Shown here in pieces: positions 35,274 through 40,169 of a stretch of DNA of 42,805 bases. The stretch is from Escherichia phage Shy, in sequence record OR996328; one strand, written 5' to 3'. The notes under the pieces are model-generated. The model saw only the letters and a list, made by a program, of their open reading frames with translations. It was not told the origin of the DNA and did not search any database. Every line of letters starts with the position of its first letter. Within the stretch, counting starts at the first letter, position 1. The translations under genes were made by a program, and so were the position numbers.

Positions 35274-35474
35274 ATGGCGAAGAAAGCGAAACAGTATTTC
35301 AGCTTGTTGACCAAGACCGACGGCGTTTGGTCGGTTCAGTTTGGCGACTACGACCGCGAATGCGTCGAACAGGAACGCGACGATTCGTATTCCGACGAAA
35401 AGTGCCGCATCATCAAGACCGACGACACGCAAGCCGCTATCGACGCCGCTGTCGCCAAACTTAACGCGGTCTAA
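35274..35474 (+). CDS. hypothetical small early protein
   Basis: 66 aa from ATG 35274 with AGGAG RBS 8 nt upstream; the track's longer ORF from 35193 has no RBS and would contain the promoter. Confidence 0.5.
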   Translation: MAKKAKQYFSLLTKTDGVWSVQFGDYDRECVEQERDDSYSDEKCRIIKTDDTQAAIDAAVAKLNAV

Positions 35475-35495
35475 TGTGGGCATAAGGGGGCCGCT

Positions 35496-35738
35496 ATGGC
35501 TTTCAGTAATCAAAGCATCGTCGCACCAGTGAAAGGCAAACCGCATATCGTATTGCGTGCCGGATTCTGGCGCGTTTCGCCAATGCCGAAGCCGTATCAT
35601 CGGTATAATATGTTGTGGAACTTGGCGCATCTTCGCGCCCGGTTGCTTAACGTAAAACGCCCGTTCGCGGGCAATAACTGGAACTTGGTAGCGGTTGACG
35701 AAATGACCGAATACCAAGCCAAAACCAAAGGAGAATAG
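35496..35738 (+). CDS. hypothetical small early protein
   Basis: 80 aa; preceded by TCTAATGTGGGCA motif and AAGGGGG RBS. Confidence 0.45.
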   Translation: MAFSNQSIVAPVKGKPHIVLRAGFWRVSPMPKPYHRYNMLWNLAHLRARLLNVKRPFAGNNWNLVAVDEMTEYQAKTKGE

Positions 35739-35741
35739 ATA

Positions 35742-35993
35742 ATGTCACGTTCGCGCAACAGGCTTGCAGTCGGCAAGCTGGAACACTTCGCCGCATGGTG
35801 CGAAAAACAGGGTTGGAAGCGTCACCAGTGCAAGGGCGCTTACGAAGTCCTTAGAATGCGTCACGAAGTCGAAAACGATACGCTTATCGTCTATCGCCGC
35901 GACAGCACGAACGCGGGCGGCGAATTGGTACACCTTACGTTGTTCGGTATCGCCGAACGCACCTTCAACCGCTATATAAAGGCGACCCGCTAA
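35742..35993 (+). CDS. hypothetical small early protein
   Basis: 83 aa ORF, tightly packed with neighbours. Confidence 0.45.
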   Translation: MSRSRNRLAVGKLEHFAAWCEKQGWKRHQCKGAYEVLRMRHEVENDTLIVYRRDSTNAGGELVHLTLFGIAERTFNRYIKATR

Positions 35994-36172
35994 TGCCAAT
36001 CATCCCGCCCCACTTCGACGCCGCAACGCTGGCGCTTGCAATGTCGCTTGTTCGCGTTGTCGGCTTCGTCGTCGGCATGGTGTTCGTAACCAAGGCGATT
36101 AAGGCCCGCAAGGCTGGTCGCAACGCCGACGCAATTTGGTACATGCTTTGCGCAATTATTTTCGTCGCATAG
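35993..36172 (+). CDS. putative small membrane protein (59 aa; below ORF-track cutoff)
   Basis: ATG overlaps upstream stop (TAATG); hydrophobic LALAMSLVRVVGFVVGMVFV segment. Confidence 0.3.
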   Translation: MPIIPPHFDAATLALAMSLVRVVGFVVGMVFVTKAIKARKAGRNADAIWYMLCAIIFVA

Positions 36173-36173
36173 C

Positions 36174-36231
36174 TTGCGTTATCGGTTTAGTTGTCGCATA
36201 ATCTAATCGTGGTCGGGGATGTTCCCCGACC
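36174..36231 (+). promoter_or_regulatory. candidate promoter (TTGCGT-17 nt-CATAAT) followed by 9-bp stem hairpin
   Basis: Hairpin GGTCGGGGA-TGT-TCCCCGACC at 36211-36231 without U-tract, just upstream of RBS AAGGAG. Confidence 0.3.
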
Positions 36232-36252
36232 CGAACCCAAGGAGTTTTAACT

Positions 36253-36735
36253 ATGTGTATCGTTTGCGAAATCCGTAACAAACTGGCTATCGAAGTGCGC
36301 GACCCCGAAGCTATCGGCTTCGTTATGCAGCGCGTCGAATTGATGGCCCGCATTCTTCACAACGTAACCGAACTTGGCAAGCAATACGCCGAAACCGGCC
36401 CCGGCATCGACAAGCGCGTTTTCCTTGATACCGCTGTCATTGCTTCGGCTTGCCTGTCGGATAGCGTAGAAGCGACCGAACATCGTAACGCCGAAATGGC
36501 CGCGCATTCGGGCAAGGACGAAGCCGAAGCCCTGTTCGACCTTATCGGGGCGCTTATCGGCTTGAAGCGTCGCAACGACGCCGAACCCGAAGGCAACCCC
36601 GGATTGCCGCCCGAAGTATGGGCCGCTATGCCCGCCGAATTGCGCGAAATGATGAAAGGCGCAAAGGTCGTGCATATCGACAGCGAATCCGACTTGTTCG
36701 AAGCGTTGACGGGCCGTAAGCCGACGAAACACTAA
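36253..36735 (+). CDS. hypothetical acidic protein
   Basis: 160 aa; AAGGAG RBS; net negative charge; followed by terminator. Confidence 0.5.
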   Translation: MCIVCEIRNKLAIEVRDPEAIGFVMQRVELMARILHNVTELGKQYAETGPGIDKRVFLDTAVIASACLSDSVEATEHRNAEMAAHSGKDEAEALFDLIGALIGLKRRNDAEPEGNPGLPPEVWAAMPAELREMMKGAKVVHIDSESDLFEALTGRKPTKH

Positions 36736-37987: not shown

Positions 37988-38006
37988 CGAAACAGGAACC
38001 GCAATC

Positions 38007-38309
38007 ATGCCAGCATACGACGTAACCACTTCTTTCGAAATGACCGACGGCCGCATTCTTGAATGCACTTACGTTCTGTCGGTCACTCCCGCCCGTCTTT
38101 GGGGTGCGCCGGAAAACTGCTACCCGGAAGAATCCGAAGCATCGGAAGGCGTGTTTACCATTGACGGCGAAGAAGTCGATTACGACAACTTGCCGAAAGG
38201 GCTGGCGGCCATCGCGGATAAACTGGAACAGGCCGGGCCGGGCGAATTCGGATACAACGAATCGTTACGCGAACCGGATTACGAACCGGACTTTTACGAT
38301 TATGATTAA
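38007..38309 (+). CDS. strongly acidic small protein (DNA-mimic candidate)
   Basis: 100 aa from ATG 38007 (AGGAA RBS); about 24 Asp/Glu versus 5 Lys/Arg by eye; C-terminal EPDYEPDFYDYD. Confidence 0.45.
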   Translation: MPAYDVTTSFEMTDGRILECTYVLSVTPARLWGAPENCYPEESEASEGVFTIDGEEVDYDNLPKGLAAIADKLEQAGPGEFGYNESLREPDYEPDFYDYD

Positions 38310-38529
38310 CTGTTTGCGATGCGAACTCATAAGGGCCAAGGCGAAAGCTACGGCCCTTTTGGCGTTGAAATGGACGCCGCAAGAAATCGCCGCGAAGCTG
38401 TCGGCCGACTATGGCGAAAGCTATTACGTCGGAATTGAAGCGAACGGCGAATGTTGGTGCAAGGGCATATTTCGGGCGTCCAAGCTGTCGCCTTATACGC
38501 CGCATCTTATTAAGGAGTTGACGAAATGA
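38302..38529 (+). CDS. hypothetical small protein
   Basis: 75 aa; start overlaps upstream stop (ATGATTAA). Confidence 0.4.
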   Translation: MINCLRCELIRAKAKATALLALKWTPQEIAAKLSADYGESYYVGIEANGECWCKGIFRASKLSPYTPHLIKELTK

Positions 38530-38933
38530 ACAAGCAAGAATCGGCCGCACTGTTCGCCGCTATCAAGGAAAACCGCCGCAAGCTGGACGCGTGCCCGCGC
38601 CATCTGTTCGACGTTGGCCCGCCGCCGTATCAGTTAGGCCAAAAGGTAACTTGCGCAATCTGCGACGGTTACATGCCGGTTACGGACGCCGCACAATACG
38701 CACGCGGCTACATGGCCGCAGGTGGCAACCCGGACGACGTAATCAAGAACTTTTACGGGCCGGATTACTCACACGAAGCCGAAGCCGTAACGTGCCCGAA
38801 ATGCAAGGGCGTATGCGGCGTCGAAATCAACCCCGGCGATTGGTTCGATTGCGACTTCTGCGACGCGACCGGCAAGATTGACCGTCACGAAGCGTTGTTG
38901 TATCTGGACAACGAAAAGGAGTCGAAACGATGA
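38526..38933 (+). CDS. Cys-rich protein with DnaJ-like zinc-finger repeats
   Basis: 135 aa; CAICDG, CPKCKGVCG and CDFCDATGK resemble CxxCxGxG-type repeats. Confidence 0.45.
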   Translation: MNKQESAALFAAIKENRRKLDACPRHLFDVGPPPYQLGQKVTCAICDGYMPVTDAAQYARGYMAAGGNPDDVIKNFYGPDYSHEAEAVTCPKCKGVCGVEINPGDWFDCDFCDATGKIDRHEALLYLDNEKESKR

Positions 38934-39391
38934 TTGAACGTCGGTACGAAGACCTTACCGAATGGGAACGGTTCTACCTGTCGTTGGCCCGCACTGTTCG
39001 CACCAAATCGAAAGACCCTTCGACGAAGGTTGGTGCGTTCATTGCACGGCCGGATAACAGCCCGGTATCGTTCGGTTACAACGGCTTTCCGCGTGGCGTG
39101 GCCGATACTGAATCCCGGCTTAACGACCGGGCGCAGAAGTACCCGCGCACCGTACACGCCGAATTGAACGCTATACTAAACAGCCGCGAATCGCTTGTCG
39201 GTTGTACGCTGTTCGTAACGCCGTTGACGCCGTGCCCGGTTTGCGCCGGGGCCATCATTCAAAGCGGCGTTAAACGCGTTGTCGCTGAATATGTGGGCAA
39301 CCGGCTTGCATACGACGAACACTTAGACATTGCCGTTTCGATGTTCAAAGAAGCGGGCGTTAAACTTATCGTAACAAGGGGCGAAGAATGA
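38930..39391 (+). CDS. dCMP (deoxycytidylate) deaminase
   Basis: 153 aa; zinc-binding signatures HAELNAI and PCPVCAGAI of the cytidine/dCMP deaminase family. Confidence 0.8.
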   Translation: MIERRYEDLTEWERFYLSLARTVRTKSKDPSTKVGAFIARPDNSPVSFGYNGFPRGVADTESRLNDRAQKYPRTVHAELNAILNSRESLVGCTLFVTPLTPCPVCAGAIIQSGVKRVVAEYVGNRLAYDEHLDIAVSMFKEAGVKLIVTRGEE

Positions 39392-39600
39392 ACATTAACG
39401 CAAAGGTTGCCGAACTGAACCGCCGTATCAACGCCGTTAACGAAATGGTTGCCGAAATCGCCGAAGGCGGATACAATGTCGAATATGAAACGATAGACGT
39501 AACGCCTATCGGCCGCACCGAATACCCGGCGTTGCGGGCGGTCGTAACCAAGACCGAAACAATTACCGGTACAGGGGTTGACAATGAAAACGAAAGCTGA
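39388..39600 (+). CDS. hypothetical small protein
   Basis: 70 aa ORF overlapping upstream stop. Confidence 0.4.
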   Translation: MNINAKVAELNRRINAVNEMVAEIAEGGYNVEYETIDVTPIGRTEYPALRAVVTKTETITGTGVDNENES

Positions 39601-39958
39601 AATACTCGCAACAGATTTCGTAATGATTGCCAGCGAAGCAAGCCCAACCGGGCAAGCGTTCGTAATGGCAATCGAAAACGGGGTCGCAAGTCCTAACCCG
39701 GTTATCGCCGAATGCGCGGTCGCACCGGGTTACTACAACCTGTTGGCCGCTAGTCGCGTCATGTTCGGCGCGTTGAACGACCAAACGGTTTGGTTGCAAA
39801 AGCTGTTGGATATGTTGGACGCGCTAGGCCAGCCGGAAGAATCGGATTTGCGTAAGACGCTGGTATCAATGCAAAACGCGGCCATGCTGGCGCAACAGTG
39901 CGCGACGGACGGACTTAACAACGTCGCAACGACGATACTTCGAACCGGCCTTAAATAA
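39584..39958 (+). CDS. hypothetical protein
   Basis: ATG 39584 with AGGGG RBS; the track start at 39578 is TTG. Confidence 0.45.
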   Translation: MKTKAEILATDFVMIASEASPTGQAFVMAIENGVASPNPVIAECAVAPGYYNLLAASRVMFGALNDQTVWLQKLLDMLDALGQPEESDLRKTLVSMQNAAMLAQQCATDGLNNVATTILRTGLK

Positions 39959-39971
39959 AGGAGTGCCCACA

Positions 39972-40169
39972 ATGACCCGGAAACACGTAGCCTATTGCAT
40001 CGGAATCGCCGCCTTGGTTATACTCGCAGGCGTCGCCGGTAACAGCGATTACGAAGAAGCCAAGCGGGAAGCCGAAGCATATTGCGCTAACGTGCATTCG
40101 GGGTTGTGGCCGGATTACAACGGTACTTATGCCGAATACTGCAAAAATGGCGAATACAACGGAAAATAG
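39972..40169 (+). CDS. small secreted/membrane protein
   Basis: 65 aa from ATG 39972 (AAAGGAG RBS); N-terminal hydrophobic segment AYCIGIAALVILAGVAG; 3 Cys. Confidence 0.4.
   Translation: MTRKHVAYCIGIAALVILAGVAGNSDYEEAKREAEAYCANVHSGLWPDYNGTYAEYCKNGEYNGK

Follow-up and report, generated by a model that had tools for sequence, protein, structure and literature searches.

Positions 35,274 to 40,169 of the genome of Escherichia phage Shy (record OR996328; the window, that is the whole stretch analysed, comprises 42,805 nucleotides (nt)) harbour sixteen small genes on the plus strand, numbered here g01 to g16 and followed by a further gene, g17. The reading that we favour, at a probability of about 0.6, is that this region forms an accessory module of a Halfdan-type siphovirus, probably of delayed-early expression and similar to the nin region of phage lambda, in which the 3′ block would serve DNA metabolism and regulation and the strongly acidic protein g10 would act as a decoy. 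The composite, nin-like accessory nature of the module is by itself quite probable, and a role of g10 as a decoy or mimic of some kind is tentative.

According to this reading, the module would consist of co-directional small genes located after the primase/helicase gene, bounded upstream by an iteron-containing, AT-rich region and downstream by a terminator at 40915-40950, which would split it from the lysis, terminase, and structural genes. Its 5′ set, g01 to g05, would comprise exchangeable ORFans, variable among relatives and sporadic in unrelated phages, and its 3′ block, g06 to g16 together with the DUF7303 gene g17, would support phage DNA metabolism and gene expression. Within this block, the TraR/DksA-like protein g06 probably tunes the host RNA polymerase, the VRR-NUC nuclease g07 probably resolves branched replication or recombination intermediates, and the dCMP deaminase g13 would feed dTTP synthesis; zinc-binding proteins without an assigned role also belong to it. 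The preferred proposal for g10 is a nucleic-acid-like decoy, with a folded beta-rich core, a dense negative surface, and a flexible acidic-aromatic tail, which would occupy the DNA- or single-stranded DNA (ssDNA)-binding site of a protein conserved across proteobacterial hosts. Candidates for this target are end-processing nucleases such as RecBCD and other DNA-binding enzymes; in its action, g10 would resemble T7 gp5.9 or Ocr.

The sixteen open reading frames (ORFs) of the cluster are co-directional, with a coding fraction of 0.96, in agreement with the original prediction, which had described about sixteen tightly packed genes. Distances at the ORF junctions lie between -17 and +80 nt. Overlaps occur in seven pairs (1, 4, 8, 4, 4, 4, and 17 nt), six of them within the 1-8 nt described earlier and one, of 17 nt, outside it. 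The products are mostly under 160 amino acids (aa), as had been noted: fifteen out of the sixteen have at most 160 aa, and the VRR-NUC protein has 199 aa. Cysteine-rich proteins are encoded at 36806, 38302, and 38526, and hydrophobic proteins with one or two spans at 35993, 37820, and 39972. Together with the VRR-NUC (PF08774) and dCMP deaminase (PF00383) matches, these correspond to the nuclease, deaminase, zinc-type, and membrane proteins expected in the cluster. The remark that most products have no recognisable domain applies to Pfam, but about eleven of the sixteen ORFs have a PHROG match at E <= 0.01, in almost every case to a family without assigned function. The features of the module are the following.

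34892-35273, + strand: upstream boundary of putative function, 382 nt non-coding, 45% GC, TATAAGG iterons, AT-rich
g01, 35274-35474, + strand: 66 aa, patchy ORFan
g02, 35496-35738, + strand: 80 aa, basic; phrog_31936 at 2.4e-5
g03, 35742-35993, + strand: 83 aa, basic, ORFan
g04, 35993-36172, + strand: 59 aa, small hydrophobic (membrane) protein; grand average of hydropathy 1.15
g05, 36253-36735, + strand: 160 aa, helical, mildly acidic (net charge -8)
36748-36774, + strand: GC-rich hairpin after g05, then TTTCT; from the RNA fold of 36736-36805
g06, 36806-36997, + strand: 63 aa, TraR/DksA-like C4 zinc finger; phrog_54 'DksA-like zinc-finger protein' at 6.2e-8
g07, 37008-37607, + strand: 199 aa, VRR-NUC nuclease; PF08774, phrog_824 at 1e-38
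g08, 37604-37810, + strand: 68 aa; among compared genomes only in Pavpe01 and Loki
g09, 37820-37987, + strand: 55 aa, single-span membrane protein; Pavpe01 only
g10, 38007-38309, + strand: 100 aa, strongly acidic; phrog_14000 family
g11, 38302-38529, + strand: 75 aa, four cysteines, conserved; phrog_8564 at 3.6e-22; in Septimatrevirus and Pavpe01
g12, 38526-38933, + strand: 135 aa, two cysteine-rich parts; phrog_9844 at 7.5e-32
g13, 38930-39391, + strand: 153 aa, dCMP deaminase; PF00383 at 1.3e-19, phrog_174 at 1e-44
g14, 39388-39600, + strand: 70 aa, acidic (net -6); Pavpe01 only
g15, 39584-39958, + strand: 124 aa, conserved; phrog_9241 at 7e-16
g16, 39972-40169, + strand: 65 aa, single-span membrane protein; phrog_6168 at 2.5e-20; kept in all relatives compared
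g17, 40270-40872, + strand: 200 aa, DUF7303, PF23978 at 4.4e-61; last module gene, beyond 35274-40169
40915-40950, + strand: downstream boundary of putative function, strong intrinsic-terminator-like hairpin AAAGCCCCCGG...CCGGGGGCTTTTCTTTG; from the fold of 40873-41032

The window resembles a whole phage genome. Terminase and structural genes occupy the plus strand up to about 22.6 kb, replication genes follow on the minus strand from 22.7 to 32.2 kb, and, after 32.2 kb, the plus strand encodes primase/helicase, the small-gene cluster, lysis genes, and terminase. No lysogeny genes appear in the annotations consulted for this phage. Aligned over its full length, the stretch 35000-40300 shares 97.2% identity with Escherichia phage Halfdan (MH362766 / NC_072811); with the Halfdan 'Juelich variant', isolated on Pseudomonas taiwanensis, it shares 96.6%. 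The genes of the cluster are already annotated in Halfdan records, mostly as 'hypothetical protein' and otherwise as VRR-NUC and dCMP deaminase; one Halfdan-type record also annotates the DksA-like zinc finger. The description of Halfdan (10.1101/2020.01.19.911818) notes mosaicism and is silent on the function of the small genes. Apart from genome descriptions, nothing relevant was found in the functional and transcriptomic literature on Halfdan or Septimatrevirus.

Every protein of the region was compared by local tblastn with complete genomes or long segments of eight cultured phages, namely Pseudomonas phage 73, Stenotrophomonas phage DLP2, Xanthomonas phage DoCa11, Variovorax phage BAPIC_0004, Pseudomonas phage Pavpe01, Acinetobacter phage Loki, and Xanthomonas phages Pfeifenkraut and Langgrundblatt1, and with seven out of ten IMG/VR contigs that were also taken. 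All compared phages possess the same architecture, with a run of small genes between primase and lysis genes, and the comparison divides the cluster into exchangeable ORFans at the 5′ side (g01 to g05) and a conserved block at the 3′ side (g06 to g16 and DUF7303). Genes g06, g07, g10, g11, g12, g13, g15, g16, and DUF7303 are collinear across Septimatrevirus, with 31-67% identity. No counterpart of g01, g03, or g04 was found in the compared genomes, and g08, g09, and g14 are common only to Pavpe01, with g08 also in Loki.

The protein g10 contains 24 D/E and 5 K/R residues in 100 aa, has an isoelectric point of 4.05 and a net charge of -19, and ends in EPDYEPDFYDYD; its extreme acidity and its C-terminus are as originally described. 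Per residue, the net charge amounts to -0.19, about 4 standard deviations (SD) under the average that 54 roughly called genes give for the window (mean -0.008, SD 0.044). Residues 1-98 align with positions 1-100 of the 101 positions of the phrog_14000 profile (E = 6.2e-43). A tblastn search detected g10 in 79 phage records, which correspond to Septimatrevirus-type phages and the Halfdan group, with an identity of typically about 67%. The Septimatrevirus phages and relatives bearing g10 infect Pseudomonas, Xanthomonas, Stenotrophomonas, Pseudoxanthomonas, and Variovorax. Toward Septimatrevirus, g10 shows 67% identity and the primase of the same genomes 56%; being more conserved than primase and among the best-conserved genes of the region, g10 does not behave as a variable gene.

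A profile search of 1.84 billion representatives revealed a g10 family of 78 clusters at 50% identity, with lengths of 62-118 aa. All 78 representatives are acidic, with a median net charge of -14 (range -3 to -25), and many of the listed members end in acidic-aromatic tails such as DYEPDYDYY and DYFDYD. The conserved positions are mostly structural (FE..DGR.L.CEY, PE.CYP.E, Y.DG.EV, LPKGL..IA..MY); single acidic residues drift and the total charge is maintained, which is compatible with a decoy or mimic role. With the family hidden Markov model (HMM), ORF44 of Loki was recognised as a diverged, syntenic copy with 25 D/E and 4 K/R, and, independently, a Foldseek search against BFVD detected another diverged relative, protein W6B0X0 of phage IME_AB3 (E = 2.7e-4). 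A locus search with the close g10 alignment retrieved only Septimatrevirus-like contigs, a plasmid search returned nothing for the family, and bacterial genomes gave one partial match, in a contig fragment of a metagenome-assembled genome. As judged from these searches, the g10 family is almost exclusively phage-borne. The conservation pattern points to a conserved host or phage target rather than to a strain-variable defence system, and a dedicated defence system is an unlikely target.

The AlphaFold2 model of g10 (predicted local distance difference test, pLDDT, 72.7) shows a beta-rich core with one helix and a low-confidence tail, which is predicted to be disordered and acidic-aromatic. The model has no fold match in the PDB, no Ugi-like fold, and no DNA-binding or oligonucleotide-binding (OB)-fold signal. 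Similarly, g10 matches no Pfam family at E <= 0.1, and neither do 80 family members, except for one stray RecX match. A weak PDB match to SUMO-2 (two domains at about 11 bits each) was judged non-informative.

By analogy with T7 gp5.9, a target of RecBCD type, DNA ends, or the nucleoid might explain the conservation of g10 across hosts; this is pure inference. A wider proposal, that the g10 family is an unrecognised class of acidic decoys that block a DNA-binding enzyme found throughout the proteobacteria, and a new fold among phage mimics of DNA and ssDNA, is doubtful. RecBCD, a nucleoid or structural maintenance of chromosomes (SMC) protein, or a widespread defence nuclease could be the target of such a decoy.

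Besides g10, the 3′ block encodes several proteins with recognisable families. The TraR/DksA-like protein g06 possesses four cysteines in a CxxC...CxxC arrangement (C38/C41/C53/C56) and an acidic N-terminus (MADEVD). Pairwise comparison with a provisional sequence of F-plasmid TraR gave E = 3e-4, and no match to Pfam (including zf-dskA_traR) or to TraR chains of the PDB was found at database scale. Its sequence makes g06 a candidate binder of the secondary channel of RNA polymerase and a plausible modulator of host transcription; if TraR-like, it would represent the one credible host-takeover function. The nuclease g07 scores 24.9 bits against PF08774 (gathering cut-off 23.8) and matches the VRR-NUC structure 4qbl of the PDB (E = 0.0054). 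It contains GVPD...YIEMKK, a putative PD-(D/E)xK motif. This gene is present in all related phages compared, and its product is probably a structure-specific or Holliday-junction endonuclease.

The deaminase g13 reaches 70.4 bits against PF00383 (cut-off 25) and possesses both zinc motifs, VHAELNAIL (HAE) and PCPVCAG (PCxxC). An assignment of g13 to the anti-phage dCTP deaminases (NF041025) was rejected, given a score of 55.6 bits against a cut-off of 400 and an alignment restricted to the deaminase core. According to the alignment, g12 combines an N-terminal C-x2-H...C-x2-C domain, common to Septimatrevirus, with a C-terminal pair of DnaJ-type CxxCxG motifs; the homologues of Septimatrevirus and Pfeifenkraut do not have the C-terminal zinc finger. 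In Pfam and in the PDB profile search, g12 showed weak matches to the DnaJ CR domain and to anti-TRAP zinc fingers. The DUF7303 gene g17 was found in every related phage examined, with 43-75% identity and always immediately before the lysis genes; neither a PDB match nor literature was found for its product.

Genes at the 5′ side show a different distribution. Homologues of g01 were detected by tblastn only in seventeen phage records, comprising Septimatrevirus Kopi, Acinetobacter phages of IME_AB3 type, and Rhizobium, Mesorhizobium, and Vibrio phages. An alternative ATG at 35193 would extend g01 to 93 aa; the shorter form is favoured because the matches to homologues begin at residues 1-8 of the 66-aa form. 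Compared with Halfdan, g02 contains a patch of about 100 nt in the middle of the gene that is roughly half identical, with an indel of 21 nt, and nearly identical flanks; the alignment identifies it as a small recombinant patch. No Pfam, PHROG, or PDB match was obtained for g03, which outside the Halfdan group occurs only in the Pseudomonas (P. fluorescens) phage PfAn1 and the Ralstonia jumbo phage RP13. No homologue of g04 was found in six related genomes compared.

The protein g05, at 36253-36735, had also been singled out as net negative. This is correct (net -8 in 160 aa) but not unusual: its charge of -0.05 per residue lies about 1 SD from the genome mean, and it ranks seventh out of 54. 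Its sequence is 100% identical to a protein recorded for Escherichia phage Shy. No Pfam family was matched at E <= 0.1, and the model (pLDDT 68) gave only generic helical fold matches. In its homologues, including the distant ORF042 of phage 73 and the copy in Pavpe01, the termini MCIVC(EI) and TKH are invariant and the middle has diverged; these termini may form a metal site. Overall, g01 to g05 are most likely exchangeable accessory genes and the likeliest seat of any host- or defence-specific functions.

Several putative signals delimit the module. Five out of the six TATAAGG heptamers of the window lie upstream of g01, at 34913, 34966, 34974, 34983, and 35146. An inverted copy is located at 35073, beside an AT-rich segment, and a consensus match to a promoter (TTCACT-17-TATACT) is present at 35053-35081. 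The stretch 34892-35273 has the look of an origin of iteron type, a regulatory region, or both. The hairpin at 36748-36774 may be a weak terminator within the module or a site of RNA processing. At the opposite end, the generic scan for promoter and terminator consensus sequences missed the signal at 40915-40950; folding of the intergenic regions revealed there, past DUF7303 and ahead of the lysis cassette, a hairpin rich in GC and bearing a T-tract (AAAGCCCCCGGCATCGCGTCCGGGGGCTTTTCTTTG), which probably marks the boundary between early and late transcription. A further promoter-like site is located at 40173-40201, ahead of the DUF7303 gene. Together, these predicted signals suggest one or two transcription units apart from the late genes. 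The terms 'early' and 'origin-like', used for this region before, are inferences rather than observations.

The anti-defence or host-takeover reading of the original prediction was followed up with sensitive HMM searches and structure prediction, in which no known anti-defence family or mimic fold was matched. Pfam, PHROGs, and NCBIfam were run on the sixteen ORFs and two downstream genes, and PADLOC on ten ORFs. The family searches recognised only VRR-NUC, dCMP deaminase, the DksA-like zinc finger, and DUF7303. Sequence or profile searches of the PDB covered g03, g05, g06, g07, g10 (two profiles), g12 (sequence and profile), g15, and g17, and 4qbl (VRR-NUC) was the only informative match. No anti-defence or host-takeover family was detected in the Pfam, PHROG, or PDB sequence searches of the ORFs, and PADLOC, which contains defence and not anti-defence families, gave no match among the ten ORFs searched. 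For g10 and g05, there was no Ocr or ArdA match in Pfam and no solved Ocr or ArdA chain among the PDB profile matches. No match to anti-CRISPR (Acr) proteins was found in PDB, Pfam, or PHROG for the ORFs searched, and no aca-like gene with a helix-turn-helix was seen beside g10 or g05 in the ORF list. Strong negative charge throughout the family was observed for g10 and not for g05. The earlier reading is partly supported: the accessory module is a separate, densely packed one with patchy 5′ genes, and the acidity of g10 is a family-wide trait; no match to an anti-defence family was found in these searches. Anti-defence is possible for single genes, especially g01 to g05 and g10, and none of the tests run supports it.

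As a whole, an arsenal directed mainly at defence or host takeover, with g10 and g05 as DNA-mimic inhibitors of restriction-modification, BREX, or CRISPR, is unlikely. The extreme and consistent acidity of g10 would fit it, and so would the accessory-type patterns of the 5′ side (patchy genes among unrelated phages, mosaic g02), the position of the cluster directly downstream of a promoter-like non-coding stretch, and a TraR/DksA-like zinc finger that could plausibly modulate host transcription. The missing homology is not decisive, since DNA mimics share no common fold. Nonetheless, neither sequence profiles nor folds matched Ocr, ArdA, Acr, or another solved protein, g05 is of ordinary composition with generic helical matches, and at least three genes serve DNA or nucleotide functions of a housekeeping type (e.g., VRR-NUC and dCMP deaminase). 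Moreover, in phages infecting E. coli, Pseudomonas, Xanthomonas, Stenotrophomonas, and Variovorax, primase is less conserved than g10; the plasmid search did not detect g10, and bacterial genomes almost never contain it. Such strong conservation across hosts would suit a partner encoded by the phage itself, and g10 might serve the phage's own replication or recombination, with its tail docking on the phage polymerase, helicase, or VRR-NUC instead of a host protein. This is somewhat unlikely. The gene lies within about 1 kb downstream of VRR-NUC, in a conserved DNA-metabolism block of the compared genomes, and its tail resembles the acidic tips of single-stranded DNA-binding protein (SSB) type that end in aromatic residues, as in the C-terminal tails of SSB, T7 gp2.5, and gp4; the SSB-like protein of the phage ends in ...GGGQPAWGQPR, without an acidic tip. 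However, Pavpe01 has the same polymerase, helicase, primase, and VRR-NUC and no g10, and the model of g10 has no DNA-binding or OB-fold signal. The uracil-DNA glycosylase inhibitor Ugi is similar to g10 in size and charge, and an inhibitor of the Ugi/p56 type would be needed if the dCMP deaminase raises the dUMP/dUTP pools; Halfdan and Septimatrevirus carry g10 as well as the deaminase, and Pavpe01 carries neither. This function is very improbable, because Pfeifenkraut, Langgrundblatt1, the IMG/VR contig L018, and Loki carry a g10 relative without the deaminase. With these counter-examples to the linkage and no Ugi-like fold, the candidates of Ugi, p56, and SAUGI type were rejected.

Two further explanations concern the module as a whole. 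It could be mainly regulatory, with g12, the homologue of Loki gp45, as an antiterminator similar to lambda Q that reads through 40915-40950. According to the Loki genome paper (PMC5313236), gp45 matches lambda Q (PDB 4mo1) in HHsearch, g12 possesses the pair of CxxCxG zinc-finger motifs, and a strong terminator separates the module from the lysis genes. Nevertheless, hhalign of the g12 family with lambda Q gave a probability of 0.5% over 12 columns, the PDB profile search found only the weak DnaJ and anti-TRAP zinc fingers and not 4mo1, and the C-terminal zinc finger is absent from the homologues of Septimatrevirus and Pfeifenkraut. With the gp45 link not reproduced, g12 was rejected as a lambda Q homologue, and the regulatory explanation is quite improbable. 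That some of the small ORFs are chance reading frames is extremely improbable, even if several have fewer than 70 aa and weak ribosome-binding sites and a basic alternative frame of 156 aa (38059-38529) overlaps g10. Codon changes relative to Halfdan and the Juelich variant are mostly synonymous (13 synonymous to 0 nonsynonymous in primase, 5:0 in g05), and this excess indicates that the ORFs are real genes. In addition, eleven of the sixteen ORFs match PHROG families, and distant phages hold homologues at the protein level. The alternative frame that overlaps g10 lacks conservation, and in Septimatrevirus g11 comes before g10. The frame at 38059-38529 is very basic, is continuous with g11, covers most of g10, and misled the longest-ORF gene caller; it is probably a mirror artefact of GA-rich acidic codons.

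Against the preferred reading of a nin-like accessory module with a g10 decoy, the following points should be considered. The decoy idea draws on nothing beyond composition and conservation in the g10 sequences. The model of g10 is of moderate confidence and matches no known mimic. Pavpe01, which of all relatives outside the Halfdan group is the closest, is the sole compared genome without g10, so the gene is dispensable in at least one lineage. Promoters and terminators were called solely by consensus or folding, and their function is putative, as is the 'early' expression for this phage group. The analogy with lambda is positional, no nin protein being homologous, and the Q-like link of Loki gp45 did not extend to g12 by hhalign.

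Some observations on the phage outside the module were also made. Near-identical phages (PP954860.1, MH362766.1) were isolated on E. coli K-12 and Pseudomonas taiwanensis, and all more distant relatives retrieved infect non-enteric Proteobacteria; consequently, the natural host of this phage type is uncertain. The endolysin gene (41734-42288) is 99.3% identical to Halfdan and only 87.6% to the Juelich variant (69 nt differences), and its neighbours are 98-100% identical, which makes the endolysin another mosaic segment. Among the replication proteins, the SSB-like (DUF669-type) protein (29454-30299, - strand) has a Gly/Gln-rich tail with no acidic tip, and the DNA polymerase (22747-24882, - strand) ends in an acidic-aromatic tip, ...DLFEDLEGSGEGW.

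As it stands, the finding is of little importance: the region is the usual 'dark matter' accessory region of a phage with a publicly available genome, and the homologous Loki module has been credited earlier with a proposed host-hijack role (PMC5313236). Its practical value lies in the ranking of candidates, in which the 5′ ORFans, as the likeliest carriers of any host- or defence-specific functions, are split from the conserved 3′ block. The region is of an ordinary kind in a known phage and contains one good experimental candidate, the g10 family, which is almost only found in phages, uniformly very acidic, conserved in phages of at least six bacterial genera, and without a known structural relative. 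If g10 decoys a conserved DNA-handling enzyme, the few known DNA mimics of phages would be joined by one with a new fold, and this could explain DNA protection in these widely distributed siphoviruses.

Compared with known systems, g10 is small and very acidic like T7 Ocr (gp0.3), T7 gp5.9, ArdA, PBS2 Ugi, and AcrIIA4, but it has no sequence or fold similarity to them; Ocr and ArdA are helical, whereas the core of g10 is predicted to be beta-rich with one helix. Pseudomonas phage YuA gp49 (PDB 3pes) possesses the motif PE-x-CYP-x-E after a beta-hairpin, as in g10 (profile E = 0.011-0.23); this match is restricted to the local motif and was judged non-informative. Similar to members of the TraR/DksA family, such as F-plasmid TraR and lambda Orf73, g06 has an acidic N-terminus and a C4 zinc finger, and it is shorter than TraR past the zinc finger. 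The lambda nin region (ren, ninB-ninI, up to Q), whose order P-ren-ninB...ninG(Rap)...Q-S-R was taken from the annotated record, likewise consists of small overlapping genes between replication and lysis genes, most of which are non-essential. Both regions encode a junction-specific endonuclease (Rap/NinG in nin, probably VRR-NUC here) and both stop before a late operon controlled by a terminator, which is putative here. They differ in that no protein homology was detected between them and no Q homologue was confirmed in this phage. Closer counterparts are the Loki module and ORF037-ORF052 of phage 73 (Septimatrevirus), at the same position between replication and lysis genes. The Loki region (gp34-gp51) was termed an 'early/lysis gene module', whose small proteins were proposed to hijack the host early; anti-defence was not proposed (PMC5313236). 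In both regions the 5′ genes are mostly unlike g01 to g05, Septimatrevirus has g10 and g11 in the opposite order, and the dCMP deaminase of Halfdan-type and Septimatrevirus phages is absent from Loki. Shared with both as collinear homologues are VRR-NUC, the acidic protein (ORF44 in Loki, ORF045 in phage 73), g12, g16, and DUF7303.

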